DNA of 63,555 nt, the filler included, from Reticulomyxa filosa (Eukaryota; Protista; Foraminifera): the NCBI GenBank assembly GCA_000512085.1. It is 17 parts of 17 records of this genome, joined end to end, with 100 filler letters (N's around TTAATTAATTAA, not from the genome) between each part and the next. Parts side by side here need not be neighbours in the genome. Positions count along the whole stretch, not along the records: positions 13,302 to 16,253 come from ASPP01003321.1; positions 16,354 to 19,246 come from ASPP01003531.1; positions 19,347 to 30,018 come from ASPP01015777.1; positions 30,119 to 39,744 come from ASPP01024057.1; positions 39,845 to 41,136 come from ASPP01002013.1; positions 41,237 to 44,348 come from ASPP01018727.1; positions 44,449 to 45,884 come from ASPP01026230.1; positions 45,985 to 48,919 come from ASPP01010950.1; 9 more parts are not named here. One strand, written 5' to 3'. Under the pieces are notes generated by a model. The model was not told where the DNA came from, searched no databases, and saw only the letters and a program-made list of their open reading frames with translations. Positions 13,857 through 49,103 of the stretch are shown here, in pieces. Numbering within the stretch: position 1 is the stretch's first letter; each line of letters begins with the position of its first letter. The position numbers and the translations under genes are program-made.

Positions 13857-16181
13857 TTAATTGTCATTTGTGATCTGGTTAAGAACTAAGTCCGTGACTA
13901 CGTGAGGACGGTTAAGTTTTTCGCTGGTGTTTAAATCTTTCAGACAACGATCGCTGGCCAAAATAGTTTGAGAAAAAGACTCTGCATAGTGTTTGGCATA
14001 TTGAATTGGCGAAGGCTGTGCAGTGCCTCCCAACGGGAAGGGGACACTAAAAGCAAACATATACGTCAGGCCAAAGACAAATTGAAATAGATCCATTGCA
14101 GAGCCTTTGGCAGCTGCCTTGTCGTTGGCCAAGTTCAGGCCGTCTAATAGTACAATATAACGAACAGGCCGTGTTTTTTCTTTTTTAGAGCGATGATAGC
14201 CAAAAATGATGAAATCCCATAAACGATCGGATAAGACATGATCAAACACAACGCACGGTACGTCTAATTGTCTGACTGAGACAGTGTGTTCGTCCCATTT
14301 TCCAAAGCGATCGATTGTGTTTTTATTGCAAAGCAGGTACTCTAAGGCAGGCCTCCATTTTTTTAACTTCCAAGCGTCTCGAAACATGCTCAATGCACGT
14401 TGAATTCCGACAACCTCTTTGGTAAACAACTCTTGGATTTGGCCATCGGCAACACCATCTCGAAAGATCCAAATGCAACCAGGCAAGCTTTTTTTCTCGC
14501 GAAGCGTGGCTTGGTATCCCTCTTCAAGTACCTGATACATTACGTTCACCATATTGGAAAACCCAACGATCTCTTTTCGACTGGGATTTAAATCTGTTCA
14601 CAGTGCACACTCAAGTTTTTTTTTTTTTTTTTTAAATAACAAAAAAAAAACAGAGACTTTGTGTTAATTTTAAAAAAAAAAAAAAAAAAATAACAATAAC
14701 ACGAAACGGCATAAGAAATGCATCTGTCGGAGTGATCCTTGAAAAGGGTCTCGCGAAAGGCTGATCATGACCACCGAGGGTTTGTTGACCACGTGGGATA
14801 CGTCGACACCTACAACCCAGCAATCATTGGGATTGATAAAAGTGGCTCCATGTGGCAAACAAGGATTAATGCGATAAGGAACATTTCCAAACTTGATCAT
14901 GATATCCTCAAAAGTGCCCAAACAGGCATTATTGTTATTGCAAGTGGCAGCTTGAATGCACTGGACCATGACCGGAACAGGGAAATTGGGTTTTTGCACC
15001 GCTTTGGTAAAGCGAGCTTTGACCTCGCTACCGCGAATGCCTTCGGGGAGTATGAGCACTAAAAACTCGTCTCCACGTCGCACCGTGTCGTTGTAGAAAG
15101 ACTCGTCCATCAGGTCGGACACAGGACGAGGCTGCGGACATAAAATTGGACCTGTTTCGAAATCGAACCTTCGTTTTTTGCAATACTCCTCCCAAGCGTA
15201 TACAAAAGATTGATACGACTTTTCATCGTTCTTAGTGCGGTCACGAGGATTGCTTTCGAATACGACCCCCCATTGTCGCAGTTGTTTCGTGCCGTCCAAA
15301 AAGCCACGACACAAACTGTACTTAAAATTATCCACCGGATTTTCTATCGGTCCTTCGTCGCTGTAAATTATTATCTTTGGCATTTGCAATACGTACGCCG
15401 GAGTTGTCATCGATTCCTCTTCGATTTCAAAATCAATGTCCAATTTGTCACTCTCGTTATCGACGTCGATACGTACATTGCTATTCTTACCCTCCTCCTC
15501 TTCTTCCTCTTCCTCACTATTGATCGAATTACTCTTACTTTGGTCTTTGGCTTTGTTTTTATTTCTGCTTTTTTTATTTGCTTCCGCTTTGCTGCTATGG
15601 TGTTGACTAATTTGTTGCACAAAGTCTTCAATACGACTCAATCGTTCTTTGGTGGAAGGATTGACGTACTCCAATACGTTTTCATACACCGCGTCGGACT
15701 GTTTCGATGTGATCGTCAATCGAATGTGCTGTGGCAAAAACACTGCTCCGCCTTTGTCCTTCACCACGCACATTTCTTGCTTTGGTGATTTGATCCCATA
15801 CGTTTTCTGCAAATAGTCTTTGTATGATATCTTTCCCCCACTTTGCAACTCAAAGGAACTGTGTTCGCTTTGGCTCCAATCCAGGCTATGCAACTGTAAG
15901 TTCCGCTTTTGATACGATAGCAAAAAATGTCGATTTATCAATTCACGCTCTGCCCTCTCTCGAAATTCTTCTATGCTTCGGCTTTGTTGGCGCATCAATT
16001 CCAACCGTTCGTTCACCTTTTTTTTTTTTTTATTAAACATATCTCATGCAAGTGTATATACGTATAAACGTATACAAAACTGTCGCTCTCTCAACCAGTT
16101 TGTGCGATAAATCCGCTTTGAACACTGTCCATTGTTTGTCACCTCGTTTCGGTAAAATACGCATTGAACACTCAAATCCAC
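13857..16181 (-). CDS. Divergent PIWI/Argonaute protein #1 (L1-PAZ-L2-MID-PIWI; N-terminus truncated by contig end)
   Basis: L1 GFECSMR...KADLSHKLVERATV; PAZ FELQSGGKISYKDYLQKTYGI...AVFLPQ; MID VQCI...IMIKFGNVPY; PIWI VVGVDVSH, RKEIV (after the intron at ~14595-14706), IFRDGVADGQ, RPVRYIVLLD, LTYMF and PSPIQYAKH. Confidence 0.92.
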
Positions 16182-16353
16182 TAATTATTGCCAAAAAAAA
16201 AAAAAAAAAAAAAAATAGTATGTTATTTAGTAAGTAAGTTTAAATTAGTTAAGNNNNNNNNNNNNNNNNNNNNNNNNNNNNNNNNNNNNNNNNNNNNTTA
16301 ATTAATTAANNNNNNNNNNNNNNNNNNNNNNNNNNNNNNNNNNNNNNNNNNNN

Positions 16354-16874
16354 TGCAGTGTTCTCCTTGGGAATCAAAACCTGAAAACTTGCACAATTTT
16401 ATGGAAAAAATTCAGCCAGATTATGGATGGGGAAATAAAGCAATTGAAGTTGGATTGGCTCATGTCAATAGAGAAATTGAGAAAGGAGAAGTTTCGCAGG
16501 TTATTTTAATTGGTGATGCTTCAGCAAATACAAAGGAAGAGGTATTGAGCAAAAGAAGCACCCGAGGAGAGCAGTATTGGAAAAATACGAAATTATTTCC
16601 CACTCCCACATACTGTGAAAATGAACTTAGTCGTTTGAAAAAACATAATGTTCCTGTTCATGCCTTTTTTACTGGAATCTTTGCAAAACAAGGTTTTGCA
16701 GCTATAGCCACAGCTACAAATGGCCGATGCGAACAATTGGACATTAATTCAAATAGAGGCTCAGAGCAATTGACTGATCTAGTCTCTGAGGAAGTTCTCA
16801 GAAATGCAGGAGGTGCAAATGGAAACGATTTTGTGGAAGCATACCGAGCCAAATTCTCGAAATCATTTACTTGA
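16354..16874 (+). CDS. von Willebrand factor A-like domain protein, C-terminal part
   Basis: GWGNKAIEVGLAH...VSQVILIGDA...VPVHAF...FAAIATATNGRC fits the second half of a VWA Rossmann fold. Confidence 0.7.
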
Positions 16875-18309
16875 TACATTTTATCTTTTGGATAATCTCT
16901 TTTGTGCATTTGTGTGAACATAAGATGTAATTTTCTATTCAATGCCCGAAAATTTGTTTTGGTAAATGATGGTATTATTTTCCTAAGAATTGGAGAATGT
17001 AAATACTTCTTTTTTTGTTCCAAAAGAATGAGAAAATTACATGTGAAATTTGTTACATTTTTTCCTTTGTTTATCAGTTTAAAAAAAGAATATGGCTGAA
17101 ATTCAATAAAATAATTCCAAAATCATTCAGTATTTTGTGATAAATTTGCATTTTTGTTGTAAGTTTTCTCGTTCGCAGAACACGACAGAATTTAATACCT
17201 AAAACAGCCAACTTTTTAAACATTTTCGAAAATGTTCCACTATAAATATTTTGCATCAATTTTTCCAAAAAATAACAAGATTTCGCAATGGAAATGAATA
17301 ACAAACATTTGTTGAAAAAATGCGTTAAAAATAAAAATTATTAATAGAGTTAAAAAAAGAAATAAATGATGATAAAATAATTTTATGTTAAGAATATTAT
17401 AATTTAAATGAAATCTTTTTTAAATTTGATTTGTTAATTTTTTTTTGACTTTAATATTGTGCAAAAATTTCAAAAAAAACTTCTATTTTTTTTGCAAACT
17501 ACTGTATTGTAAATCAGAAAAAGTCAACAGTAATATGAAACATATTTTACAAAGTGTTATGCTTAGTAAATTTTAAATTTTCAATTTATGATGCTAGGTT
17601 GCCCTTTTTAATTTACTTTCGTATTAGGACGACATGCTACCAAACATATGGAAGAAATACTTGGGGAAGAGATCAAACAATGTCGAGAGGATGTAAACTA
17701 GAATTATAAAGTTCTTTGAAAGAGTAGAACAAGCAAGAGATACAAATGAAAACGAGTATGTTAGCATACAGAACCAAATTCTCAAAATCGTTTACTTAAT
17801 ACATTTTATTTTGTTTTTTGAAAACTGTCAAAGAGTTTGATCATTTGTTTATTATTTGCTTCAAAGGAATTGATAGACTCTTTTTTTTGCTTCAAAGTAT
17901 AAGAAAATTAATCAATTAAAAAAAATGATTGAAATTTATCAAAGAATCATTTAGTAATTTGTAAAAATACTACATTAATATGTTTTTTAATATTCGAATT
18001 CAATATCAGATAATTTGTGTAAGACGAAAAAATGTTTAAACATTTTTTTCTCTCAAAAAAAAGGATGACATAATTCTCTCAAAATTGAAAAAAAATATTG
18101 TAATTTTCATTTTTTTTATAAGATTGGCGCTTTTTTTAAAAAGGAAAAATTCTACGCATATGCTTTAAAACCAATAAACAAATTTTGCTTTGTGTCTTAT
18201 TCACAAAGGAATAGGAGAGATGAAATGCAATCGAGGCATGCAGGATAATAGCAATGACAATTATAATGAAAAAACAGAAATATGTTAAAACGATTCAATT
18301 ACAAAATAT

Positions 18310-19150
18310 ATTAACTGGAAAACAAATTCAAATATAAAAGGACATTTTGATAGTATATTTTCATCAGATAGCTCAAAGGTTATTTCATATTCAAGTGATA
18401 AAACTACGAATATGGGATATATCTTCAAACATTGATTGTAAAACAATGTGATGGACAAACTTCAACAGCATTGTTATATTTTGTTCATAATATTTATAAT
18501 AATAATTTAATACAGGCAAGCACAGTCTTTATGATTGACACATTTTGCTCATCATCCAAATTAATTAGTACATTCACTGGACATACTAATATTGTGTGTA
18601 GTATAGAGTATGGGATGTTGACAATAAACAAATTCAATCATTTAATAAGCATTCAAGTGCTGTAAGTTGTGCCAAATTTTCATAATCATCGTCATGTCAT
18701 TTGTTTTTTATTTGGATTGGTGAGATTGAATTTTCGCCATTTAATGGTGGCCGATATTTGTGTTCTGACAAAACTATTCGTTTATGGGATGTTGAAACAG
18801 CTAAATCATTATATGTTTTTGATGGACATGAAGACCGTTTTTGGTGTGGATTTTTCACCACTATAAAATAGTAATGATATTGATGTGATTTGTGGTAATG
18901 GATATACAATTTGTTCTGGATTACCATTTGTACATAGGGTATGCTGTTGAGTATTCATTTATAATAAATAGTAGTGGTGATATGCTCTGGGTCACGTGAT
19001 AATACAATTCGATTTTGTGATTTTCGATCAAATGTAATTAAAGGAGATGAAAGAGATAAAGAAATAATATGTTTTAAATTTATGTCATTAAAAAAGAAAT
19101 TAAACAATGTTAATTTATGTTATGATCCAATTCATATTTGGGATGAATAA
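18310..19150 (+). pseudogene. Decayed WD40-repeat gene
   Basis: Fragments KGHFDSIFSSDSSKVISYSSDKT, FTGHTNIVCSIEY, SDKTIRLWDVET..FDGHED and SGSRDNTIRF are spread over different frames with stops. Confidence 0.8.
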
Positions 19151-19346
19151 AATTTTGTAATATGGTGATATGGACAAAATTTTTTTTTGCCCCATTTCAT
19201 TGATTTGTGATCATATTACAAGTACATAGAGAAAATATACAATATCNNNNNNNNNNNNNNNNNNNNNNNNNNNNNNNNNNNNNNNNNNNNTTAATTAATT
19301 AANNNNNNNNNNNNNNNNNNNNNNNNNNNNNNNNNNNNNNNNNNNN

Positions 19347-19846
19347 TTACTGACTTTTCGAGCAAAGAGTGAATATCATGAACAATAAGCACGTGTGGGG
19401 GTTCATTTCCGAATTTATGAAATTGTGTCAAAAATTTGGTGAGCTCTTCAATGGTTGTTATATTTTCTTATTTACATTTTTTTTTTTTTTTTTTTTTTTT
19501 TTGGGTTGTTTCGCCTCCCCCTTTTTTTAGTTTTATCTTTAACTTCATTTGAATTTGACGGAACAGGTCTGTGTGTTGGTCAACACGAAAGTGAGAGGGC
19601 AAGCGAGGGAGTGTCCCTTTCGTGAAAATTGCTTTGTTGCAGACAAATATCACCCGATTTCCCTTCATGGTGTGAGATAGACCAGTCTGAAATAACAACG
19701 ACACCAAATCGCTATTGTTTTATTTTTGATTCGATTACGTCCCTCGACAAGGCGAAAGAGAGCCCATAAAAAAAGGTAGTAAAACCACCACACCAGTTTT
19801 CAGTACCAGCAATCAAGCAATTTTTATCATCTGTGGCACAAAACAT
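19347..19846 (-). CDS. SWSAP1-like RecA/RAD51-paralog-fold protein (3' truncated, start uncertain)
   Basis: The spliced translation CLIAGTENCDLVSLLFQTGLSHTMKGNRVIFVC...LFRQIQMKYITTIEELTKFLTQFH...PHVLIVHDI follows the SWSAP1 pattern (LLLG.....TALLF...VLFL...IRFQY....EL..LL...PSLLLLD). Confidence 0.5.
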
Positions 19847-20068
19847 CGGAAATGCTTGGTATATTGGGTTCAATATTACAATTATAAATGAAAGGGCCCC
19901 TCCCAACTGAATTTTTTAATTTAGAGTGTCTTTAAAACAACTGAGTGCTGACAAGTTCTAAAGAGAAAAAGCGAAAGCCAATAGCAAACGTTTAGCTTTT
20001 CAACTGAAAGAAAAAAGGAAGAAAAGTGGAAGGGGACAAGAACAGTTTTCAGTTCGTCAGTTTGAATT

Positions 20069-22669
20069 ATGCGTTCAATATTGTTGAGCATATTTCCATT
20101 TTTGTTTGTTCAGTGTTGTATTAATGCTGCGTCAACTCGGTATCCGAACATACTTTTTCTGATCGATGAATCAACGGAGGCAAGTGCGTACTTCATGGGT
20201 AATCCCAAGGCAGCACCAATGCCGATCCCAAATCTGCAACATTTAATGAAAGAAGGTGTTGCATTTACAAACCATTACGTTGCAGCGCCAGTTGTGTTGG
20301 TAAATGTTGACCTCTTTGAGTCCTCTTTTTCTGTTTCTGTCTCTTTCAATTTGTTTTTTTTTCAATGATATGAAAAATGACTAGCCCTTCCCGAGCTTCA
20401 CTGATCAGTGGACGACATGTCCATAAAATTGGTCACTACCAAGAAAACCCAAGCACAGGTCTATATGTAGATGGTGCCTGGAACAACCACGAAGTAAGTA
20501 TACGGTACTTTGTGCAATGACCTGTTTTCAAACATGCAGTCAACTGGGTGATATTGTAAAAAAAAAAAAAAAAAAGGGAATTGCCATCCAATTTCAGTGA
20601 ATCCTTTTTTGATGTATTGGAACATGCAGGGTATGCATACAAAGTGTTTGGGAAAAAAGATTGGAGTGCAGGTGGTCACACAGTAAGCTGTCGAGTCGCA
20701 GCATGGGCAAACAAAGTCAAATTTCCATACACTTTGGATGGAAATGCTTCCGGGTAATATACATATTTGCATACAAATATGTATATTTCTTTGCACATTG
20801 GCACAAAACGAGTAACGATAATATACACTTGGCCAAACAAAAATTTGATCAGATGGTTCGAGGAAACAGGACCAGTTTTTGATGGTTAATATATGCATTT
20901 GCTATATGTATGAGAAGACATACATATACATATACATATACATATATATATATGTATATGTACATATTCACTGAATTGTGTGTTTCAACGACTTAATTAG
21001 ACATCAACACAACCAATCCCGATGCAACGACACACCAAGGAGATTTGGGAAATGCCGAAAATTTGGTAAATTGGGTAAAGCAACAGAGCAAACCCTGGTT
21101 TGTGTGTGTATGTGTGTCTGTGAAATGATATTGTGTGTACAGTCCGTGCAAATGCTACGCACATGCATACGTACATGCATACGTACAATGTATAATAAAA
21201 ACAATGCTCTTAATAAACAGGGTGGCATATTTCGCTCCCAGCATCTGTCATCCTCCATACTCGACAACAACATATTGGTTGTCTCAAGTGAACCAATCAC
21301 TGATAACAATTCCGACTTGGGTGCCAATAGAGGACATGCACATCGAAGACTACTTTTCCAGTATGAAAAAGAAAATGTTTGGAGGAGATCCTGACTGTTG
21401 CACCGATGAGTACAAAAAAACAATTCGGACTCACTATTATGCTTTGGTCGCCGAATACGATTCCATGTTGGGTTACATTTTCAATGGAATACAGCAAGTA
21501 TGTTTCCACTCCCATTCTTTCACAATATATACATAAATATATTTATATTTATATTATATTTATATTTATACCATTGTTTGTGTGAGTATGCAATTCGACA
21601 ATTTTTTTCCCGCAACACAATTCACCTTCATTTGTTACAAATAGGCCGGAAAATGGAATGACACCTGGATTGTTGCAACCAGTGACCATGGCGATATGGT
21701 CCTTTTTTTTAAAAAAAAAAAAAAAATCCAATTGAACCTTTTTTTTGTTCTGTTCAGAGCCAGTTAAATTTCACAATCTATACGTATGCTTTGTTGATAA
21801 TAGAATATGGAGCATCAGCAGTATTACAAAATGGTTAGTGTATTGTATGAAATTGAGTATATGTATATGCATATATAATATATATATACATATATACACA
21901 CGCATGTTTACAAAGGTATTCTTTGATGGGTCGTCGCGAGTGCCTTTGATAATATCAGCAGGAAACAAAATAGAAATCAATCGCAACGTAGTTATAAATA
22001 ATCTTACATCCTCGTTGGATTTGTTTCCGACTCTGTTGGCGATGGCGAATGTCTCTGTCCCTGCGAATATCAGCTCCAAATTGGATGGCTACAACATTTT
22101 GCCTTTCGTTACAAACAAAAACTACAGCAATGAAAATATTCGTCCCAATTATATCATGTCCCAATTCCACGGGGATGATATTCATTTGTCTTGGTTTATG
22201 TTACGAAAAGTTACTTGCAATTAGTCTCACTTTCATTTCGTAGTTTTATGGCTTCCTTTTTTTTTTTTTAAACTCCATGTTTTGCTTGGAAATCTAAAAA
22301 TAGGACAATTGGAAATATGTCACATATGGCTCTGGACACGAGGTTCCTGTTCGTTTGTATGACATGGTCAATGATCCGAATGAAATGAATGACCTGGGAC
22401 AAAATGATACGTATGACTCTGTTGTTGCCCAAATGGACACCCTCTTACGAAGCATCATCGATTATCCAAGTATAGCTACAAATGTAGAGGCTTACAACAA
22501 AGACTCCTTTGTCTTGTGGAGAGATGCTTTCCCGAACCAAACAAGTTACATGGAAACTATATCTAGCTTACGCTGGAATGTCAGCTGGACTTATGATCCC
22601 CCTGCTTGCTATTTGGCCATTGACGAATGGCTCAAAACTCCTAATGACACATTTTTTTGGGCCTTTTAG
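20069..22669 (+). CDS. ARSK: Secreted/lysosomal sulfatase, arylsulfatase K-like (multi-exon)
   Basis: Signal peptide, PNILFLIDES, PSRASLISG, AWNNHE, GYAYKVFGKKDWSAGGHTVSCRVAAWA, CHPPY, YYALVAEYD, TSDHGD, RVPLII, DLFPTL, SQFHG and YDMVNDPNE. Confidence 0.85.
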
Positions 22670-23098
22670 ATTAAACTATTGAAGTGTTGGATTGTTGTTT
22701 ACCTTACCACTTTTTTGGTTCATATTGAACCGCTATGTGATATAAACCCCAATATTTTTCTGTACTTTTATTTCATTCACATGAAAATCATATTAGCGTA
22801 ATTGCTCAATCAACTGATAAGAAATTTGTATAGAAAATCTGCTATCAAAAAACTTGGAAAAACGATACTTTTTTGCAAATATGAGGTTGATCACTTGATC
22901 TTGCCCAATATCTTCAATCACCAAAATAATTTTAGAAAAGTAGTGAATTTTTAAATTATTTCACCCAAAAAAAGACTTTCCACTTCGATTTAGGAAGAAT
23001 TAAGCACAGGACAGGCTTTGATTATTGTTATCAGCCACAAGGTGTCACAACAAGAAATTATTTACAACAGTATCTTTATTCTACTGAAAACGAGGAAA

Positions 23099-25615
23099 AT
23101 GTACACACCGTCAAAAGTGGTAAGGACTTCTGTCACCACTTCAAGCAAAAGAAAGAGGGCCTTATTGCTCAAAACTGCTAAACAAGATCAATTCCTGAAA
23201 CTTCCAACCGTTCTTATTCATCACATTTTTGGTAATGTTATGTGTTGTTTCGTTTTACACTACACATTTTCACATTTTTGATTGGTTTGAAAAAAAAGAC
23301 TTTCTCGATTTGAAAGAGCTACTAGTCTTGCGATCAGTGAACATGTTTTTGGGAAATTTTTGTTTGACGACCTATTTTAGTGGTAATAAGTGTCCACATA
23401 AAGAATTGACATTTCTTTTGGGTTATGTTACAAGCTATTTCAATATGAAAATGCCACAACTCTTGCAAAACACGACACCAAAATCGCAATCGATCGATGA
23501 CATATCCGTAGCAGCTTACGACAAAGCCCTTGCATCTTCGGTATTATCTCAAAGAAAGAAAGCCCTATCTTTTCCTTTGGTTGGCATCAATGGCTCAGCA
23601 TCCAAACTGTCACACGACAACGGGATACCATATTATTGTCGCAGTAAATTGACCGGAATAGGAGTTTGCAATGCATCAGATTTGAACAAAAAACTAATTG
23701 TTATTTCGCAAATCCCTGATATACTTGCATTTAATTCATCCACTCAGTCGCGAGTTTTTGTTACGTGTTGTTTTGTTTTTGATAAAAAAAAATTGCTCTC
23801 TTGTTAACTATTCGATTGGGTGACAAACACAAAAAAAAAAGCTGTACGATAACACTTGGCATCACATTGCATCAGAAATGCGTTCACTGACTTTTCGAGG
23901 TTTGGTGTTATGTCAAAGTGTAAGAGGAAATCTTATTGCTGTGGGAGGTAGTAACAGCACAAAAAGTGGAGGACGGGTCGTTGTTTGGAGACTTCGTGGA
24001 GTAACAAAGTCTGAGGCTTCTCTCTCTCCTAAAGGAGATGAAAAAATATTCGAGCACAATGAAACAAACGATTTTAATAATAGCAGTTTGTATGAATAGG
24101 GGAGAGAAAGAAAAGCAATTATAAACCTTTTTTTGCTTTTATTTGGATTGATTCAACAGATGACACTCTCTATCGTGCAAAAGTTGTCGCAGAACTTACG
24201 GTATCAAGTAGTGTTAAACTTATTGATATTTCCCAAGAGTTGTCACATGTAGTATTCATGACCGAAAGCGCACACTTATGTCTGTTAAGTATTGCAGGTA
24301 GCACAAAATGTTCTAAATTAAAGTTGCACATTTTAAGAACAAAAAAATCAAACAAAACAAAAAGATGGAATTTAAACAATAAGAAATCGCAGTGCTTTTG
24401 TGCACACAATTTGAAAGCAACCGCGGCGCAGTTATCCTATAATCACTTGTACCTGAGTTCCCCAGCAGAAATTCACATACTTGACGCGAAATATGTTTTT
24501 GAAAATCAAACATATGCTTCAACCAAGCGTAACGCCGTTGCCATATTTTCAGGTTCCAAATATTTGAACAATTCTTGTTTTCGTCTATGTACTGATTTTG
24601 TAGTGGTTAATGAAATGTGCATTAATGACAGATGATGAAACATATCCAAGAGATGAAGCAGGCGAAACAGATTATTCGCAAATGCCATTTGAAAAAATTG
24701 TGACACTTTGGCAACGTTAAGTAAAAAAAGACAATAAATATTGCAAGAGAATATTGTCTTTTTTGTTGTTTATTCAACTGATAGAATGGATGGACAAAAA
24801 GAAAATTTCGGAAAAAATATATCAATTGAATTGCAATGGAGTTTGCTGGTATGTCCTCAACTCCAAAACTCTTGATTTGCTACGATTTGACCTGCCGAAG
24901 TCGTTGCAGAAAAGTGTTCCATTGAAAGAAAAGCAAAATTTCACAAAACAACAACCTCTGTCCCCGATCAATTTAGCTTCGCGCAGGACTAGTGGTGCAA
25001 ATCTTACAAGCCAACTCGTCGACGCAACAAGAACAAGTACACAAACAACTGGGCATTGCCCTAATTGGCATTCATGCAAAAAGATCGACTCCGAGTTTTG
25101 GGACTTTGTTGATCCTTGCCCAGAACCAATACCAGAACCACCAAGTTGTTGAAAATCCCTTTTTGTGCTAAGTTGAAATTTGAGATGTCTTTGAAATATA
25201 CACAATTTTTTCTTTTTGATTCGTTTTGTTATTGAGAAGACGCTTATCGTTGCCGAATCAAACTGCCTTTAAGTAGCACTGACAGGATCTGGTGTATTTG
25301 TGTATATGAAAAATTTATATTGGTGCTATCAAAAGAATTAGAACTGTTCGTGCTTGATGACTTAGGTAAAAGTTAAAGGAATTAACACTTTTCATCAAAC
25401 ATAAATCTCTTTTTGTTTGAATAGGACATTTTTGGAGGCGACAACATTTGAACATGGAAGAGATAGTCCAAGATTGGAATGATTTAACAATGACATATAC
25501 CAATGGTGCTTTGTGGTTTTTGATAAATCAAGAAAAGATTACGTGCTGCAAATTTACATTTGACAGTTACGTGGCCAAAGAATTTTCCACCACACCTACA
25601 TCCAGTCTTGCCTAA
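23099..25615 (+). CDS. F-box protein with probable beta-propeller C-terminal region (multi-exon)
   Basis: FLKLPTVLIHHIF|DFLDLKELLVLRSVN is an F-box consensus. The downstream exons are beta-rich (IAVGG...GRVVVWRL). The final exon ends ...TPTSSLA* at 25615. Confidence 0.65.
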
Positions 25616-31432: not shown

Positions 31433-31482
<50 letters not shown>

Positions 31483-38350: not shown

Positions 38351-39294
38351 TTACTCAGTTGTGGACTCAATTGTTTGGCTTTGTGCCTGGTCTGAGCTTT
38401 CAGTGATGGTATTTTGTTGCACTGTTGTCTCATTGGTGTCCTCGGAGTGAACTGCATTCACTGTAAATTCACCTTTTGAAACATTTTCATTGACTGGCTC
38501 CTTTTTGTTTGTTTGTTTGTTTCATTTATTTTTGTGGCGTGATGAGAAAGAGAGAAAACACACTAAACACACTTGTTCATGTTGTTGGTGAGTATCAAAG
38601 TGATCTTGATTTTCACTCATTTGAGCGACCTGATCAATATCATTTGTTTTGCTAGTAGTTTCACTTTGCTGTTGGGTACTAATATCTTGAGGTAATCCAA
38701 AGTCACTGTCATCCAACCTCGGCAATTGAAAAGGGGTAGGTTGGTGAGTTCTCGTGTATTCAGTAGTATCTTCTTCTTCTTCATTGCTAGTTGTCTCGGA
38801 CGGGTATGCGGCAACAGGGTTGTGTGTGGACTCTTGACTCGCCTCCACAGTTGCGTGTGCTTGCAAAGGTACACTACCAGTTTGTTCCACATGTTGTGTG
38901 GTGGGTTCTTCTTTGCGATCAATTTCCTCCTGTTTTGTTTCCTTCACATCATTTGATGATACTTCGGTGGCAGAAGAGGGGTTGCTTTTGTCCGTTTCCT
39001 TTGTTTCATTGTTGTCTTTATCGTTATTACCATTATTGTCATTGGTATTCACTACCTCTCTTTCTCCTCCTCCTTTTCCTGTGGCCACCTCTTTCTCCGT
39101 TTCCGGACGGTCTTCTGATGTCGAATCTGCTCCTGAATCGTCCGAAGACTCGGAGTCCAACGGTTTGGGGGCAGTATCTGCAACTGTGCTATCGACTTGT
39201 TGTTGCCGTTGAAGGAAGATTTCAACTGATCGCACGATTATATGTTTTGTGAACAAAATAAAACTCATTGTTATATGTTCATATAAATAAATAA

Positions 39295-39330
<36 letters not shown>

Positions 39331-39644
39331 GTATATGTATATGTATATATAATTTTATTTTTTTTGTATTGTTACACAAAGACATGCTTTCAGTGTCACT
39401 GGAAAAGAATCTCATGACTTCAATATCTTCCTTTTCATTTTTTAATTTTTTGACGCACTCTTTGACGTCCTCTCGATTGACATATTTTTCATTTTTCAAG
39501 AGATCAGTCGACAAAAATCTCGCCAGAGCAAATCGTACGTTAGAAATGCGGTCGTCTGCATAGGTCAGCAACTTTGGCAAGAAGCGCTGATTAAACAAAT
39601 CCGTCGAGACTCTTGAAGAACATATTTCACACAACTTCACATAC
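38351..39644 (-). CDS. HEAT-repeat phosphatase regulatory subunit, PP4R1-like, C-terminal part with long acidic tail
   Basis: FLPKLLTYADDRISNVRFALAR...VKKLKNEKEDIEVMRFFS resembles the last HEAT repeats of PP4R1/PP2A-A (L..LA.DRVPNVR). Confidence 0.7.
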
Positions 39645-40843
39645 CTGATATACAAAGCCAAACAACCAAGACGATTCAATTATTATTATTATTATTTTTT
39701 TATTTTTTTTTTTTGTTGAAAGATTTGAATAAAAAAAAAAAAAANNNNNNNNNNNNNNNNNNNNNNNNNNNNNNNNNNNNNNNNNNNNTTAATTAATTAA
39801 NNNNNNNNNNNNNNNNNNNNNNNNNNNNNNNNNNNNNNNNNNNNTGCCATTTAGGTATGGCAGTTTTTTTTGCAATCTACTGTATGTGTCAATGATGTCA
39901 TCTTATTCTTTGGTAGGTGCGGAGATTGATTATTCACACGATTATGCTTCACTATCAATTTGAATTTTTATGATGAACGTCAGCTTCCATTTACGCACAC
40001 ATTCATGACTTACACAAAATTGTTTTGAAACTTTGCGCAACTCCAGCACTGACAAAACATATCAACGGTAAGTCTTTTGTTAAAATTATCAATCCTTTAG
40101 TAATTTTTAAAAAAAAATTAAAAAACTCAAATATTGAATTAAATTTAGCTAAAAAAAAAAAGAAAAATAAAGGATAAAATATTGTAATAATTAGTAAAAA
40201 TTTAATAAAAAACTACTAACTCCAAACAAACCAAATGAAATAATTGAAAGTGCAATGATTGTAGACAATGCCACGACAATTCTACAAGTCTTTTGTGTAC
40301 AATATAAAACTGTGAGAAATTAGCGCAAATGGCTTAAAACATTCTTTCTTTTTTCTTCGTTTGTTTTTTATTTCTTGTACATTTTTTGTAATAAGAGCAT
40401 GAAATGTGATCAATCAAAAGTTCCACAAAATTGTCATAAATTCAAAATAAAACTTTATGCACATGAATTGGAACTTTGTTTGAATCATAACATCTTTATC
40501 GAATAGTTTTATTCTTTTTAGTGAAACTGAATAATTGAAAAAAAGAAATTTGTCAAATAAGATATTCATCTGATTTGGATTGCATACAATTATGGTTCAT
40601 GCTGTATTTATTGTAAATTATTTTATTGTATTTTGTAAAGAATAAAATGACTTCGGAATTGTTTTCCGTCCAATTTCACTGCCATTGTTCCAAGTGAATA
40701 TTTTTTTGTTCAATTTAAGAAAGCAAACAGCAAGAAGTGAACTGAAAAAAATATTTCAAAAAATAATAATAATTTTCACTTTAGAAAATTTTATTCAAAA
40801 GGGATATAATTAGAAAGAAAAATTGTATTAATTTGTGTGACTC

Positions 40844-41136
40844 TTAATTATCCCAAATTCGAATTGTACAATCAGTAGAACCTGATACAATTGTATTTCC
40901 ATTTTGAGATATATCAATACATCTCACAGCTTGAGAATGCCCTTCTAGTATTTGTATTCTCTTCCCTGATTCTACGTCCCATAATCGAATTGTATTATCG
41001 CTTGAACATGATACAATTGTTTGGCCATCTGGAAAATATTTTATGTCGTTTACATGATGTGAATGCTCTTTCAATATTTTCCATTCTATTTCTATTGCAA
41101 TATTCCATATTCGAATTGTTTCATCCAATGAACAAG
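40844..41136 (-). CDS. WD40-repeat protein, C-terminal end
   Basis: EHSHHVNDIKYFPDGQTIVSCSSDNTIRLWD and GHSQAVRCIDISQNGNTIVSGSTDCTIRIWD. Confidence 0.85.
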
Positions 41137-41339
41137 NNNNNNNNNNNNNNNNNNNNNNNNNNNNNNNNNNNNNNNNNNNNTTAATTAATTAANNNNNNNN
41201 NNNNNNNNNNNNNNNNNNNNNNNNNNNNNNNNNNNNAAAAAAAAAAACTAATGGAATGTTAATTTCTCTCCAAACATTTTCAAGAAAATTCTGACATATT
41301 CTAAATATCCCTTTTTTTTTTTTTTTTTGGGACAACATA

Positions 41340-42234
41340 CCACCATCCTCAGAGGAATTAAAAATTGCTAGCAAGGGCGTTGATTGTTTGCAAGCATATG
41401 CTAGTAACGCAATTCAATTGTTTGGACAATATCTCAAAGTGGGCACGCTGTTCGCCTCTGATCTGTGTTGGAGATGATCGTCAAAAAAAACAAAAACAAA
41501 AAAATTTTTTGGTGTCCTTTCCTGAGGGTGTCCACCTGTGTCCCCCTTTTTTTTGAAAAAGTTCCGTTCATAGGTAATCCATGTTTTAATCTACTCCTAT
41601 CCCTTGTAATCAACTTTCAAATCCCCTCTCCTTTCTCCCTTCTCCCTTCTCCCTCTCTTTCCTTCCTTGTTTTTGCAATAGCATGACATACCTCAATTGA
41701 CAGACTGTTTGCTCTTTCTTCAGCTCGATCGTCCATTTCTTCAAAACGTTTCTGGTTGTTATCGTCACATTCTTTTACCTGTTGCATTGTAATAAAATTT
41801 CAACAAATGATAAAACCATAAACTCTTTTATAACATTTATTTATTTTTATTTACATTGTTTGTTTATTGCAAAAGTGATTAACTAAATCTTGTGTCTCTA
41901 ATGCGGTATCTTCGACTTTGTCAATCACTTTTTTGGTATTGGCGTTGCTCGAAAAATATGAGTAGGCAACAAACACTATCAAAGCAGCAGAAGTCAGTGT
42001 TACCGCTTTTCGGGTCAGTGAGACCTCACTTCGCTCTGTTATTACATGAATGGACCGCATTACTCGTTCCTCTGAGGCCACGTTTACTTGTGGCGTTTGC
42101 AAGGAGGGCTGTGGTGGAGCGTTATCTTGTGCTCCTGCCCAATCTTTCAATTTTTGTAAGCTCTCCGCTTTTAAGAAATAGCTTGAAAGAGTTACAGCGC
42201 CAGTACCACATAACAGAAAAACTACCGGATTCAT
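41340..42234 (-). CDS. Membrane-anchored coiled-coil protein (possibly DUF1664-like); 3' truncated
   Basis: N-terminal hydrophobic segment, a second TM segment (LTSAALIVFVAYSYF), then coiled-coil exons (VKECDDNNQKRFEEMD..., IRGEQRAHFEILSKQL). Confidence 0.5.
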
Positions 42235-42516
42235 TATACCTCAATTACAAAGGGTTTTTTTGTTTGCTTTTTTTTTTCTAAACAAAAAAAGTGGACCACA
42301 AAGTTGCAAAAGTACACAAAAAAAAGTTTTATTTTTCCGTTAGTTTTATGGCCTGGAATTTCAAAAGTGTTCATTTGTCAAGAGCACGAACATTTTTTTA
42401 AATCTAGAAAAATCTCAATGTTTTTTCTATAAAAATTTTAATTTTTGCTGTTTTCAATTAATTTGCTAAAAAGATTTTTTATTTCACAAAAAAAAAATGT
42501 ACTTGTTTATTTCAGT

Positions 42517-43011
42517 TCAATTTGAGTTGGTTGAATTCTCCAGGATATAAGAGGGAATGAAACAAGACTCACGCATTTGTAAGAGATCGTCCAATAAATT
42601 CATTTTCAACAACAATGCTTTAAATTGTATTCGAACAACAGAGAGAGTGTTTTCCACAACTTTTTCAATATTGCTTTGATTTTCTTTGTTTTCAAGACCA
42701 CTAAAGTGCAGTGTTATTTTGTTCAAATGCCGAGAAATTCGACGGATAGTCATTTGAATTTTTGCACACTCTTTATCATTTGATGTATTTTCCCCGTAAT
42801 TTGACATTTCCATTTCAAATTTGCAAATAAAGGCTTGATAAAACCCCAGCTCTTCTCCCAATTTTGTTCCTTCTGCCTTTCCTTGTTCGAGTCCGTTTTG
42901 AAAGGCTTCTTCGTTTTTTAGTGCTTGTGCGCTCTGTAGCCCCTCATTGATAAATGACGATTCTAAATCTAATACAAAATCAAATGCATCATCTATCTCA
43001 TCGATATCCAT
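42517..43011 (-). CDS. LTO1: LTO1/ORAOV1-like Yae1_N domain protein (CIA adaptor for Rli1/ABCE1)
   Basis: DAFDFVLDLESSFINEG...GLEQGKAEGTKLGEELGFYQ gives the GX3 repeat and ELGFY motif. Confidence 0.8.
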   Translation of the reverse strand: MDIDEIDDAFDFVLDLESSFINEGLQSAQALKNEEAFQNGLEQGKAEGTKLGEELGFYQAFICKFEMEMSNYGENTSNDKECAKIQMTIRRISRHLNKITLHFSGLENKENQSNIEKVVENTLSVVRIQFKALLLKMNLLDDLLQMRESCFIPSYILENSTNSN

Positions 43012-43746
43012 GTCTATTTCGTAATGAAGAGATTTGGGATCTTTTTATGTAAGTCAACTTTACAAAACGGAATAAACCCCCTTTTTCGTCCTACATTTTG
43101 AATTAAATTGAAAACTTGACACTTTAACAGATGACGCAAACATAAAGAAAAGTAAATAAATTTGTCATTTTCTAGACAACCAGTACAATTCCGATTTTTA
43201 AAATTGATAGTAATATTATGCACCTACCATAAAAAAGTGAAAGAGGGCACAATAAATTTGTATAGACCCACTTTTTAGAAAATTGAAGATTCTTGTAAAT
43301 TGTGGTAGTTTCTATTCTTGAAGAAAGGGTATCATTTTGACTTTTGTTCAAAAATGTCATTTACAACTCGGAGTTGATGGTCAGCAACAACAAAAAAGTC
43401 TTTATCTAGCACGGTAAATTTAAAACCCCGGAAATGTATAAGGTACCGAAAGATGTTGTCCACAAGAGGGGCGAAAAAAAGGCAGTACAAAAAACTTCAT
43501 GTCGAAGTCAAACACAAAGCATGTCTTTGCACACCAAAAAAACAAAAAACCGAATCAAACCAAAAAAAAAAAAACTACTGATCATCCAGCATTAAAAGCA
43601 AGGGAGAGAGAAAAAAAGAAAAATATTAAAAAAACAAGATTGATCTTGCGAGCAAATAGAAGGAAAGAGGGAAAATGTAACAAGATTGCATATAAGAGCC
43701 GAACATGACATGGAGGGGGGGGGGAGCACAAAGAAAAAATTGCTGA

Positions 43747-44302
43747 TCAGTCGAAATCTTCTTCGCCGGGTTGAAAGATATCTTTTTTATCAATAGGAAT
43801 TCTTTCAAAAGTGAACCCGTAAAAATGATTTTTATCTTTTTTTACATTGAGAAGACCCCCATCAGCAGGTGGAGACGAAGCATTTTTGTCCAACTCTTCA
43901 AGACAAGCCCCACAAACCCCTTTGGGGTCAAGATTGTTAAATGACGATTGTTTTTTCTTGTGCGAGTTTTTGCGGGCTGGCTCTGTAATTCCAAGGTGGT
44001 GTTTCCCTTTCTCATCCTCATTCATATCGGGATCGGAGTCGGAATTTTGTGGATCCGGTATCGCCAATTCCACGTCTTTTACTTTGTCAAAGTACCGAAT
44101 GTCTGCGTCGTGGTCGATCACCGGCTTGAACGGAGGGCGCATCGTGCGCAAATTGTGCCACGGTACATTGCGAAAAAACGCATGTTTTTTCAGTTGATTG
44201 AAGTTCATTCGTTTGTCTCGTCCACAAATCAAGCGAAAGATGCAGTCTTTCGCCTCTTTCGACAGATTGCAGTGTTTGGGAATTCGTAAGTATTCTCGAT
44301 AT
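43747..44302 (-). CDS. NDR/LATS-type AGC protein kinase, last exon
   Basis: LSKEAKDCIFRLIC...KKHAFFRNVPW...PPFKP...DIRYFD and the hydrophobic motif FYGFTF. Confidence 0.85.
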
Positions 44303-44448
44303 CTTATTCACCACCAAATATGTACATAAACATAAAATGTATATATATNNNNNNNNNNNNNNNNNNNNNNNNNNNNNNNNNNNNNNNNNNNNTTAATTAA
44401 TTAANNNNNNNNNNNNNNNNNNNNNNNNNNNNNNNNNNNNNNNNNNNN

Positions 44449-45855
44449 AAAATGAACAGTCGAAACAAAATAATATCAACAATAAAGAATGGCGAACAAA
44501 ATTGAGCAACTTTTTTATTAAATAAGCCGAAATTGCAATATCAACAGCATTCACATGCTTTTCTTTAATAATAAGTGTTTAAATTTTATTTTTTTTAGTT
44601 TGCTTTAATTGTTAAAAGAGGTGAATTGAATCTTAATATTTCACTGAGACTTCAACACTTCGAAAACAAGGCTCAGATGATTCGGTTGAGCATTGGCATT
44701 GCTCATGTAATTCCCCCTGACCATTCCACAGGGAAGAGTCAATTTTATTTTCACAACCGTTGATTGATCTCGCCGTACAACTTTTGATATTTTAAAGGTT
44801 AAATTAAAACTTAAAATTTTTTTTCACTTGTTGTTGTTAATTGTGTGAATTTTTGATATATTTTGTTGATCTTTTCTATTTTTTATTTGTTTTCATTATA
44901 GTACTATGTTCCTTTCGGGACGAGATGCTCATTTTAACTTGGATAAGGTCTCATTCTTGCTAAAAAAAAAATGGAAATGAAAACAGTAATGGTCCACAAA
45001 AGCCAAAAAAAAGATCAATAGAAAGAGAAAGATTAGCAACGATCAAAGACAAAAGAATGAGAAATCTAATGCTGATAAAATCTTATCGCTAAGACGTGAA
45101 TTGTCAGAGATGAAACCAGCATTCCAACAATTACAATCCTTCTTGCAATCAATTAATCCAACATTGATTCAGATGGGAATTGGAAATCTATTAGATGAAA
45201 TTAATATTGCAAATACCAATAAGAAAATGGATCTATGATCGGAGTCTATTGGTATTCTAGAATAATATCAACGAATTATGAATCGTCTTTGGTGGAATGC
45301 TGTTGATATTGCAATTTCGGCTTATTTAATAAAAAAGTTGCTCAATTTTGTTCGCCATTCTTTATTGTTGATATTATTTTGTTTCGACTGTTCATTTTGG
45401 GTGTTTCGTTTGTTAACTTGTATATATCTGATCTCGCGCAAAATCGCAATATCAGATATCTGACTAGTAAAAAAAAAATTTTTTTAACGATAAAAAAAAA
45501 AATTTACTAGTTAAAAAAAATTTCTTTTTTTAGTAGTTTGAAAGCATTTTCTTTGTATCTTTGTTTTTGTTTCTGTTTTCGCCACAATCTTGTTGACGAC
45601 GAAAATCGTTGTTAATAATCGAAAATTAACTTCGAACTTCTTTCAGATACTGCTAGATGTTTCAGTATCTAGTTGTTCTGTACTTGCCTTCCTTCAAAAT
45701 ACAACTTTTTTTTCAAAAGTTTATCTCGATGACGAAGGATTTTTTTTTCTTTCAATTTTGTTCGTCATTCTTTCTTGTTAATCGACTATTCATTTTGAGT
45801 GTTATTATCTTGTATATATCTGATCTCGCGCAAAATCGCAATATCAGATATCTGA
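44449..45855. mobile_element. Inverted-repeat element (putative non-autonomous DNA transposon)
   Basis: 44449-44552 is an exact 104-bp reverse complement of 45295-45398. A 47-bp direct repeat sits at 45417-45463 and 45809-45855, and a degenerate third copy of the IR arm at ~45752-45803. Confidence 0.65.
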
Positions 45856-46144
45856 AAGTTTTCGTAAAAAGATTTTTTATCACANNNNNNNNNNNNNNNN
45901 NNNNNNNNNNNNNNNNNNNNNNNNNNNNTTAATTAATTAANNNNNNNNNNNNNNNNNNNNNNNNNNNNNNNNNNNNNNNNNNNNTTTTTTTTTGTTGAAC
46001 CATTTGAGCCTCTGAGATTATAAGGAAAATGCATTGATATTTTTTTTTTTTTTTTTTTTTGAATATTTTTAAAATATTTGTTTCTATAGTGGTGACAAAG
46101 ACCAAAAAAAAGAAAAAAGATCAAAAAAAGAAACTGGCACAGAC

Positions 46145-46630
46145 TTGAATGAAAACGATAACGATAACGAAAATGAAAATGAAAATGACAATAAAGAAAA
46201 TGAAGATGACAATAAAGAAAATGAAGATGACAATAAAGAAAATGTAGAAAATACCAACGAAGCTCAGTCGATTCAAGAGTTATTGGATAAAGGCAAAAAA
46301 AATGACTTAGATCATTCCAATTGGGCTTATGTCGAAGAAGAAATGGTCCAAGAATTGCACGACTTCGATGTCAAACAAAAAGATTATGTGTTTATCACTG
46401 TCAAAACTACCTTTCAACAATTAGTTCAATGGCTAATCCAAACCAATAATTATCAGAGATGGAATTGCTCAAAGATATTTGCTATCGAACGTCGGCACGT
46501 AGTCGAACGAAACATTGAAAAATTAGGTTATTTGAATTGGAAACCTTTGTATCCCCGACAATGTCTCATGTTTGCTGGCTTAGTCATGTCGCTGACTATG
46601 ATTTTGCTTGCTTTTATGCAAGTTGGATAA
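46145..46630 (+). CDS. Unknown protein, last exon with acidic repeat and C-terminal TM (tail-anchor-like)
   Basis: Tandem ENEDDNK 21-bp repeats, a globular segment and terminal CLMFAGLVMSLTMILLAFMQVG*. Confidence 0.55.
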   Translation: MNENDNDNENENENDNKENEDDNKENEDDNKENVENTNEAQSIQELLDKGKKNDLDHSNWAYVEEEMVQELHDFDVKQKDYVFITVKTTFQQLVQWLIQTNNYQRWNCSKIFAIERRHVVERNIEKLGYLNWKPLYPRQCLMFAGLVMSLTMILLAFMQVG

Positions 46631-47010
46631 ATTTAGCTGTATAAAACAAAATACTGTGTTTCACTTCAAAAAAACAAGAAGACCGGGAATGGGCGAGCTT
46701 TCTTTGTTTTTTTGCAAGTAATAAAATGCTTGTCAAAAACTCAAACCGTTGACTTTTTTTAAAGTGACACTTTCGCGTTTTCTTGTTGATCAGAATCTTC
46801 AACAAAATTTTTTTGTAAAACACAGCAATATTTTCAACACCATTTAGCTTTTCATCATCAGCTACAAACTCAAAAAAAATCGGAACTAAAAACAGACAAA
46901 TCAAAATTCAATTCAATACAACAAGTGCCTTCATTTTTTTTAACCATTTTCAAATCCGAAGACACTTGTCTTCGTTTTTTTGGTGGTTTATTTAACCACT
47001 GGAAAAAAAA

Positions 47011-47099
47011 GCTGGAGACAAAAATCAAAAATTTTAGTTATAAGTCAGGTGTCAAATACGTGACGCCTGAATTATGACTAAATTTTTTCGGTTTCCAGC
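47011..47099 (+). other. Long intergenic stem-loop (candidate ncRNA/pre-small-RNA or tiny foldback element)
   Basis: A 28-bp inner stem around the loop aatacg (47055-47060) plus a 9-bp outer stem gctggagac/gtttccagc. Confidence 0.5.
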
Positions 47100-47528
47100 A
47101 GATGTGCAAAATTGAGATTAGTGCTTTGTTTGTACTTGTAATTTCTATGAAAAAATAATTCTTTTACTTATCCCTTCCGTGACAAAATTGATTTAAGCCA
47201 TCTATCTTGCAGCAGGTTGCTGTTCTCCAAATAAATTTTTCATACTGGCGACTCCCGCCAACAGAACTATTTGCTATTTGAGTTATTTGACTTTAAAAGT
47301 ACAAAAATTGTCGAATATTATTTTAAATCTTCTTCAATACAGCTCTTTTTCCCTATTTTCGTGTTAAAATGAAAAGTTTGGAAAGAAATTTGTTTGTGAA
47401 TGACGTTGCTAAGGGATTGTCACGATCTCATTGCTTAGGTTTGATAATTAAAAAAAAAGAAAGACAAAACAAATACATTCTTCAAATCACTGCTGACTTG
47501 AAAAAAAAGTACAAAAGCATTATGCCTA

Positions 47529-48834
47529 CTAACTCTTGAAATCGTTGACACATATTGGTTCATCACAAGAAACAACAAATTCTCGAAGACCACTCTGAGA
47601 ATACTTCAAAGCAAGTTTATTGGCGATTTTGACGACATGTGGAACATAGGTAGGGTCGTTGAAGTACAAGTCAAATAAATGATACGAGAACGTTTGGAAG
47701 TGTCGAAGACACTGTTTAATAATATCTAGCCCATCCTCGATGATGATAAACTCAGTTGGAGTGGGTTGCCCTCCTTGACGTATGCGAAAGGGAATAATGA
47801 AAAACTGGTTTTTGAGGAAAGTCTGGCTGAAGAGTGTTCCGGAAGTGAGTGGAGCTCCATTTTCCCCATAAAATTGGGACTCTGCACTTGACTGAACAAT
47901 TACGAATTCAAGACCACAATTTTGTTCATCGCATTTGGACGACAGCATTTTTTTTACATTTGAAACTTCTTCTTTTTTGATTGTTTCTATCAGAGCTGAT
48001 GGGCGTATACCGGCCTTTTTTTTAAAAAAAAAAAAATTCGCAGTCATCACAAAGTTTAGCTTTATTGGAAGACGAATAAACAAATAAATAAATGAATGAA
48101 AAAATAAGCACCTGTAGAAAATGACTTGATCTGGATAAGCATCGTTGTGCTTGTGAAATGTATCCAGCGCGAGTGCAAGGTATTTGTCACAGCTTGGGAT
48201 CACATCATTCTGCATTGGCTCGATGCCGACTAATCGATGGACTCGAACAAAATCGGGGTCGTATGTGGACGCAAATCCGACCATTGCACTTCCCTCTGTC
48301 GTGTTAACATTGATATCCATTCCGACAAGCATCGTTTTTTTTCTTTTTAGTTGCAAAGGTCGTTCCACTTGTTTCCAGTCTATTTTCCACGGGATCCAAT
48401 TTGCTTTGGTTAATAAGCAATAGAGAGCACTACGCAAACGCTGGTTGTGTTTTGCATTCTAATTAGTACGTAAAAAAAAAAAAAAAAAAAAAGGGGGTTT
48501 ACGTATACGTGACAGGGAAAAAAAAAAAAAAAAAAAGTACATCTTCTTTGATGCATTGAACAGGAATTCTCTTTTGGCCATTCCTTCGCGACCAAGTTTG
48601 CATGCACGTGTAAGCCTGCTCATCTCGACCTCTGGTGACAACAAAGAGAGCATGAACAGGTGGTCGTGACTGTGTCACAATCGAGGATAAATACTCGTGA
48701 CAATCTCCCGAGTCGATCAAATTGGTGGTTACATATCTGCTCGGATGTAATTCTATCCCTTTGAACAGTGGGGAATCCAATAGGTTTTTTATCTTGTTTG
48801 TCACTCGAGTTCCACTTTCAAAGTTGTGTGTCAC
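47529..48834 (-). CDS. Divergent PIWI/Argonaute protein #2 (MID-PIWI; N-terminus truncated), catalytic tetrad degenerate
   Basis: MID EQAY...IPVQCI...LLTKANWIPW; PIWI TMLVGMDI, AMVGFASTYD, YPDQVIFYR|AG, PTPTEFIIIED, FQTFSYHLFDLYFN and VPHVVKIANKLA. Confidence 0.88.
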
Positions 48835-49103
48835 TACTATACTGTTGTTGTTGTTATTATTGTTGTTTGTTTCTACTGTTTTTTATATACACACATATAA
48901 TAATAAAAAAAAAAAAAAANNNNNNNNNNNNNNNNNNNNNNNNNNNNNNNNNNNNNNNNNNNNTTAATTAATTAANNNNNNNNNNNNNNNNNNNNNNNNN
49001 NNNNNNNNNNNNNNNNNNNACATATATAATTTTTTTTTATAGTGTCTCTTTTTTTTTTCCCCCCCCCCTCCTCTCCAAGTGATAAGAAGATTAAGATAAC
49101 ACA

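Follow-up and report, generated by a model that had tools for sequence, protein, structure and literature searches.

Two divergent PIWI-clade Argonautes with altered catalytic tetrads in the foraminiferan Reticulomyxa filosa

Introduction

Does a pair of very dissimilar PIWI genes in a small sample of a protist genome point to a small-RNA system of that lineage's own? The question is raised by a stretch of 63,555 nucleotides from the freshwater foraminiferan Reticulomyxa filosa (GCA_000512085.1), here called the window, in which 17 contigs are joined by artificial N44-12nt-N44 spacers. A preliminary description of the window had reported two highly dissimilar PIWI paralogs on different contigs between positions 13857 and 48834, one potentially active and one slicer-dead, and had proposed that the lineage may have a diversified PIWI pathway. 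Dead members are a common feature of eukaryotic paralog families.

Foraminiferal Argonaute families were not found described in the literature searched; a count may be given in the R. filosa genome paper, which lay outside that search. RNA silencing in Rhizaria is termed largely unexplored in the portion of PMC13547706 available to us, which describes PbAGO1 and PbAGO2 of Plasmodiophora brassicae as two AGO-clade proteins with DDH intact. These are the sole studied rhizarian Argonautes that we found, and they differ from the two genes described here, which are PIWI-clade with altered tetrads. A term look-up in the accessible text of two rhizarian genome papers gave no mention of Argonaute families (PMC13746701, PMC11069148).

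Results

Two PIWI-domain genes with altered active sites

Both genes lie on the minus strand of separate short contigs. Gene A is the annotated R. filosa protein 'Argonaute-2b' (P0001, 733 residues), on a 2952-bp contig at 13302-16253. It encodes the end of the L1 linker, PAZ, the L2 linker, MID and PIWI, in the order of long eukaryotic Argonautes, with PAZ (E 6.7e-12) and Piwi (E 9.3e-13) both above the Pfam cut-off; the N domain falls past the contig end. Gene B is annotated as RFI_15003 (P0006, partial, 448 residues), on a 2935-bp contig at 45985-48919. It has a Piwi domain (E 1.7e-14) and covers MID-PIWI only, as the contig end cuts its 5' part; in its sister RFI_29768, PAZ is matched at E 3.7e-6, slightly under the Pfam cut-off. 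The end points first reported fit the stop codon of gene A (13857) and the upstream exon of gene B. The genes are as dissimilar as had been described: they share 16% identity over aligned MID-PIWI columns, and their best BLASTP stretch is 17% over 99 residues (E 0.16). With nine relatives as tblastn queries, no missing 5' part of either gene was found elsewhere in the window.

Catalytic residues were read from an alignment of 93 proteins of at least 230 residues. The tetrad is D-E-D-K in gene A and D-D-A-N in gene B. Neither is the slicer tetrad D-E-D-[D/H], which the R. filosa paralog ETO31586 keeps intact as D-E-D-D. The description of gene B as slicer-dead agrees with this at the level of sequence, and the description of gene A as the potentially active member is not supported.

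A protein search covering lengths of 432-2000 residues returned five matches from 1209 candidates, namely gene A and four metagenomic relatives at 39-64% identity. A metagenome scan with the alignment of this group, the A clade, gave two intron-free loci among 299 pattern matches, both near already-known proteins. Full-length relatives have an RG-rich N-terminus, with 27 and 19 RG in the first 230 residues. Lysine occupies the fourth catalytic position in all seven A-clade rows that cover the site, which form five clusters at 90% identity; one member, P0005, has also lost the first Asp and reads N-D-D-K. The fourth site aligns with sponge Piwi without a gap: a Tyr-Ala anchor sets the register, the His-Lys of PIWI corresponds to Lys-His in gene A, and the lysine stands opposite the catalytic histidine of PIWI proteins. 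As reported in the sections of PMC7015924 that we could consult, silkworm Siwi H874K, whose tetrad is likewise D-E-D-K, 'had almost no slicer activity', and Drosophila Piwi, which keeps both Asp residues in its D-V-D-K, serves as a binding platform and does not slice. On these two precedents gene A is predicted not to cut its targets.

Gene A could instead slice by way of an unusual active site, in which the swapped Lys-His pair or the histidine one residue downstream supplies the fourth ligand. D-E-D and the glutamate-finger helpers, a His that follows the first Asp and an Arg that precedes the third, are conserved in four of five A clusters at 38-62% identity, and the histidine after the lysine is invariant. 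Against this stand the gap-free register given by the Tyr-Ala anchor, the near loss of Siwi slicing when histidine becomes lysine at the same site, the missing first Asp of P0005, and the failure of Drosophila Piwi to slice despite both Asp residues (PMC7015924, same sections). We consider active slicing by gene A unlikely.

The pocket for the guide 5' end is changed as well. In PIWI proteins, according to the structural account in PMC7015924, Tyr, Lys, Gln and Lys bind the 5' phosphate, and a metal is held by Gln589 and the C-terminal carboxylate. In all five A clusters the Tyr is Lys, the first Lys is Thr, the Gln589-equivalent is Asp or Glu and the C-terminus is extended, the Tyr/Lys register being taken from aligned sequences where divergence is high. 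Gene B has Gln for Lys and Cys at the Gln589-equivalent. The canonical metal-dependent pocket is absent from the A clade and from gene B, and we class both as PIWI-derived variants, not canonical PIWIs. The Asp/Glu of the A clade may replace the terminal carboxylate that binds the 5'-end metal, and the preference for guide 5' ends may differ. Judged by these residues, the A clade forms a PIWI subfamily that is both conserved and strongly remodelled, its fourth catalytic site being Lys and its 5'-phosphate pocket changed. Such a subfamily was not found described in the literature searched, nor was any paper found that pairs DEDK with argonaute.

Gene B as a degenerate member of a slicer subclade

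The relatives of gene B have mostly kept what it has lost. Its three nearest relatives with a complete tetrad, P0007, P0009 and P0015, retain D-E-D-D, and P0008 has D-E-D but does not cover the last site; in gene B, the QKR guide-backbone motif also reads QSS. A D-D-D-N tetrad occurs in four other PIWI-type proteins (P0011, P0034, P0068, P0088), and the D-D-A-N of gene B is one change away from it.

The catalytic strand of gene B is interrupted by a 97-nt intron-like insert (48015..48111), identified by splice enumeration, base composition and alignment. It resembles the other three introns, at 77% AT and with a poly-T/poly-A tract. In the public annotation it is translated in frame, and the resulting 32-residue insert was rejected as protein, being absent from all 12 other alignment rows that cover both flanks. 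Splicing at the canonical GT-AG sites puts the gene out of frame by one base. An Asp at the third site results from none of the 13 in-frame donor-acceptor pairs and would need two base changes; a one-base undercall in a G run would give Arg-Ala-Gly.

The rest of the frame is open, with no stops in 377 codons compared to 5.3 expected at 10% neutral divergence, and the end branch of gene B measures 0.97 substitutions per column in a 50-row MID-PIWI tree. Together these suggest that gene B evolved as a protein for nearly all of its history and is therefore either live or only just dead; the out-of-frame splice makes recent decay possible. We regard gene B as a fast-evolving, degenerate member of a slicer subclade, possibly one that became a pseudogene very recently.

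Placement in a rhizarian PIWI radiation

Trees were built from 50, 35 and 31 of the 93 aligned proteins, without near-duplicates, short rows or surplus outgroup rows. In the 50-row MID-PIWI tree, the A clade (stem of 2.1 substitutions per column) and the B subclade each have support of 100/100. A 31-row clade (100/99) holds both and stands apart from animal-type PIWI and AGO. PIWI and AGO are split at 100/100, with A and B on the PIWI side. The AGO Lys566-equivalent gives the same picture, being present in 5/5 AGO rows and in none of the five A rows or the four B-subclade rows covering the site. The A relative P0003 scores 236 bits with the profile of Retaria-type PIWI, 148 with its sister group, 124 with other PIWI and 9 with AGO. 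A Trp signature is found in 5/5 A rows and 14/14 other Retaria/Gromia-type rows, and in 0/25 other PIWI and 0/5 AGO rows. We conclude from these comparisons that genes A and B belong to the PIWI clade, within a rhizarian PIWI radiation, and group neither with animal PIWI nor with AGO. The outcome named beforehand as fatal to the proposal was a small number of Argonautes that group with conventional clades; the half of it that concerns grouping did not occur.

A single clade of the four R. filosa genes known to us was rejected (approximately unbiased (AU) test, p 3.6e-5), so their split is older than the species, and a recent species-specific duplication as the origin of A and B was discarded. 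The A clade as sister of the B subclade was neither rejected nor shown (p 0.43). In several other Retaria-type PIWIs (P0012, P0017, P0019, P0022), including Astrolonche and more than one sublineage, the first catalytic Asp is Asn, which points to repeated slicer loss in Retaria.

How many PIWI genes

A phmmer search with gene B over 1.84 billion representative proteins gave 83 matches at E <= 0.001. Species look-up, which covered 29 of the 82 non-self matches, named seven clusters: R. filosa RFI_29768 and ETO31586, Astrolonche serrata, Elphidium margaritaceum, Gromia sphaerica, Nonionella stella and Bonamia ostreae. With genes A and B, this makes at least four R. filosa PIWI-clade genes, a lower bound in a library that merges proteins above 50% identity and hides paralogs. 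Named foraminiferal proteins fall in four separate sublineages of the 50-row tree. Non-canonical tetrads occur in 11/22 Retaria/Gromia-type clusters, 2/13 sister-group rows and 8/40 other PIWI-type rows; the tally excludes AGO rows, duplicates from within a cluster and rows in which a site is missing, and its counts are not phylogenetically independent, the A clade supplying 5 of the 11. These data support a moderate, old PIWI diversification with catalytic loss in the R. filosa lineage. The proposal of a diversified PIWI set is upheld in this respect, with at least four genes in a rhizarian radiation and catalytically altered members among them; the part that cast gene A as its active slicer is not.

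The meeting of two PIWI genes in one window bears on family size. The assembly is given as 101.9 Mb in 50,809 contigs in the excerpt seen of PMC10245619, and genome size is estimated at ~320 Mb in that of PMC4471660. The probability that some window of the assembly holds a PIWI pair is 0.4% for 4 genes, 2.6% for 10, 11% for 20 and 52% for 50, on the assumption of random contig order. Finding such a pair shifts belief toward a family of more than four genes, a shift that depends on the prior and on that same assumption, in a scan that itself selects such coincidences.

One alternative is an ordinary small family of about 4-6 R. filosa PIWI genes, in which gene B is a decaying duplicate and the pair shares a window by chance. 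Four members were found, two of them further ones named among the 29 of 82 matches looked up, and word-index protein searches turned up no close duplicate of gene A or B. Gene B has a frameshifting splice and has lost QKR, and altered tetrads are also seen in the 8/40 other PIWI-type rows. The searches were insensitive, however: the word index missed P0007 and P0009 though they are in range, and a profile search with the B-clade alignment (8 matches from 6922 candidates) recovered 1 of its own 15 rows. The representative library conceals paralogs, a pair in one window is 0.4-0.9% likely for 4-6 genes, the frame of gene B is still open, and the A subfamily is conserved whatever the gene count. 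We hold the small family possible though doubtful.

At the other extreme, a WAGO- or Twi-like expansion of at least 20 genes could guide programmed genome processing, for example chromatin elimination in Zerfall. The pair odds scale quadratically with gene number, and the posterior for at least 20 genes is 0.55-0.94 under two priors. The spread of foraminiferal proteins over four sublineages and the excess of non-canonical tetrads (11/22 versus 8/40, not independent) fit as well, as does the upregulation of PIWI during Zerfall in Allogromia laticollaris, for which the part of the preprint seen does not state the paralog (bioRxiv 10.64898/2026.10.21.760831). Four genes have been shown, however, the odds carry the assumptions stated above, nothing in the window ties gene A or B to DNA elimination, and the Zerfall data come from another species. 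We do not conclude an expansion on the WAGO scale, since four genes are a lower bound and the odds assume random contig order in a scan that selects coincidences; so large a family with such a role seems very unlikely.

Gene structures

Gene A has three exons on its contig and two GT-AG introns (all features on the minus strand). The first exon, 16081..16180, encodes the end of the L1 linker and was found by tblastn with P0003 (74% over 39 residues); it is absent from the annotated P0001, and further 5' exons lie beyond the contig end. After a GT-AG intron at 16080-16017 found by splice analysis, the exon 14708..16016 encodes PAZ, L2 with an acidic low-complexity insert, MID and the first catalytic Asp, as placed by the Pfam PAZ match, alignment columns and codon positions (MID Tyr-to-Lys, 15020; Gln589-equivalent Asp, 14906; first catalytic Asp, 14804). 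The second intron, 14594..14707 (114 nt, GT-AG, phase 1), gives an in-frame splice that agrees with P0001 and with intron-free relatives. The last exon, 13857..14593, holds the Pfam Piwi domain, with Glu at 14573, Asp at 14459, the Lys at the fourth catalytic position at 13994 and the His one residue later; the stop is at 13859-13857, and the C-terminus is without the canonical aromatic-Leu end. In the public annotation, gene A starts inside an intron and carries a spurious C-terminal tail spliced past the genomic stop (13857-13900).

Gene B has three coding segments, also on the minus strand. The upstream segment, 48541..48843, covers the L2 end and MID, matches P0006 and P0007, and is an open frame. 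It is followed by an 82-nt GT-AG intron of phase 0 (48459..48540), joined as in the annotated P0006, and by the exon 48112..48458 with the MID end and PIWI start (first catalytic Asp, 48317; Asp at the glutamate-finger position, 48206). Beyond the 97-nt insert, the last exon, 47529..48014, has the third-position Ala at 48014, QSS at 47891, the fourth-position Asn at 47621 and the stop at 47531-47529. Its public annotation also ends in a spurious tail spliced past the genomic stop (47529-47560).

Other elements in the window

Repeats make up 30.5% of the assembly, according to the part of PMC13746701 consulted. The foldback and terminal inverted repeat (TIR) elements mentioned in the preliminary description are present in the window. 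The foldback element (5142-5485, per-contig BLAST) is 344 bp, 83% self-complementary, AT-rich, non-coding and resembles a miniature inverted-repeat transposable element. The TIR element (44449-45398) has perfect 104-bp arms at 44449-44552 and 45295-45398, its left side is cut by the contig end, and part of the arm recurs at 45752-45855. We rejected both as evidence for PIWI function; being on unlinked contigs, they show only that the genome has repeats. Dispersed repeats common to contigs pair 12123-12248 with 55685-55805 (81%) and 18725-18811 with 60664-60758 (73% identity), the latter presumably WD40 gene fragments. At 5683-7301 lies a gene whose product is membrane-anchored and carries Cys-rich repeats in tandem (183-nt DNA period); its main repeat open reading frame (ORF) has no Pfam match. 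The last contig (62374-63555) has 47% GC, an intron-free ORF and three PD40 repeats (Pfam E 7.7e-19), and looks like bacterial contamination of the assembly.

Discussion

Our preferred explanation, which we think probable, is that genes A and B, both PIWI-clade Argonautes with altered tetrads, are old and evolved separately, and that they likely act as small-RNA-guided, non-cutting silencing platforms, while D-E-D-D paralogs slice. Labor would be divided within one genome: the D-E-D-D proteins would slice targets, and the conserved gene A and the degenerate gene B, given their altered cutting sites, would likely bind guide-matched RNA and silence it without cutting. By analogy with Drosophila Piwi, both might recruit silencing partners and bring about transcriptional silencing of repeats. 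The single hint of function is the upregulation of PIWI during Zerfall in A. laticollaris (bioRxiv 10.64898/2026.10.21.760831). The A clade may load a different guide class through its remodelled 5' pocket.

Several observations weigh against this explanation. In the A clade, the D-E-D kept in 4/5 clusters and the invariant His beside the Lys could mean retained catalysis. The frame shift at the 97-nt insert counts against a working gene B, which also lacks the Trp signature. The comparison rows were fetched with gene B as query, a biased set, and mostly carry no taxon label; the word 'foraminiferal' is inferred for the A clade, as one member alone has a species name. The 23-row node that joins A and B to the named Retaria/Gromia rows has only 93/85 support, and no firm sister group of A emerges from the tree. 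Because of its long branch, the A clade was tested separately against AGO: that grouping was not rejected on MID-PIWI columns alone (p-AU 0.198) and was rejected on full-length rows (p-AU 0.022). Foldseek with the predicted model of P0001, whose low confidence (predicted local distance difference test 53) supports the Argonaute fold only, puts human Ago2 (E 1.5e-15) over Siwi (5.7e-15), unlike sequence searches of the PDB, which rank PIWI first for gene A.

Comparison with known systems places the two genes nearest the eukaryotic PIWI clade (sponge Piwi 7kx7/7yfq, human PIWIL1/2, Siwi). It supplies the best sequence matches of A and B and shares their PAZ-MID-PIWI order, the PIWI side of the tree (100/100) and the RG-rich N-terminus of full-length A relatives. 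Typical of this clade is the binding of Dicer-independent, 2'-O-methylated piRNAs of 24-31 nt. A and B differ from it in their ~20% identity, in having D-E-D-K and D-D-A-N in place of D-E-D-H, in the Gln589-equivalent (Asp/Glu in A, Cys in B) and in lacking the C-terminal aromatic-Leu end. Drosophila Piwi resembles gene A in the Lys at the fourth catalytic position and in the non-cutting platform role predicted for A (PMC7015924, portion consulted). Gene A, by contrast, keeps the glutamate finger, its Lys change is separate, in the rhizarian lineage, and it does not have the canonical 5'-phosphate pocket that the fly protein keeps.

Nematode WAGO and ciliate Twi/Ptiwi/Otiwi proteins were compared by their general features, the trees holding no WAGO row and no ciliate-labelled row. 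Like the WAGO clade, the A clade is lineage-restricted and long-branched and has lost catalytic residues; the top ESM Atlas feature match of P0003, which serves as a lead only, is a Piwi-domain cluster (0.98) whose members come mostly from nematodes. A and B come from the PIWI side, however, and tens of paralogs or triphosphate guides made by RNA-dependent RNA polymerase are not evidenced here. The ciliate family, about 12-15 proteins in size, is likewise a protist PIWI-clade family with slicers and non-slicers in organisms with unusual nuclear dynamics. It differs from the R. filosa set, which numbers at least four and shows no link to DNA elimination in the present data.

A bolder version is a foraminiferal multi-gene PIWI system in which the A clade, WAGO-like but of separate origin, would be non-slicing and load distinct guides, such as triphosphorylated RNAs, into its re-engineered 5' pocket. 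Together with the D-E-D-D slicers, it would mark the chromatin that is kept or discarded as thousands of genome copies are processed in Zerfall. We consider this quite improbable; if true, foraminifera would join ciliates as a second protist lineage whose genome processing is guided by small RNAs.

What the present comparison offers is a set of specific R. filosa paralogs, named and sorted by their residues into those predicted to slice and those predicted not to. A D-E-D-K PIWI that is natural and conserved would add an independent example of slicer loss to that of Drosophila Piwi. Foraminifera combine repeat-rich genomes with a stage of massive chromatin breakdown in which, as far as the accessible part of the preprint describes it, PIWI is upregulated (bioRxiv 10.64898/2026.10.21.760831). 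With these paralogs and a conserved subfamily in which both the active site and the 5' pocket are altered, small-RNA control of foraminiferal genome dynamics becomes testable.

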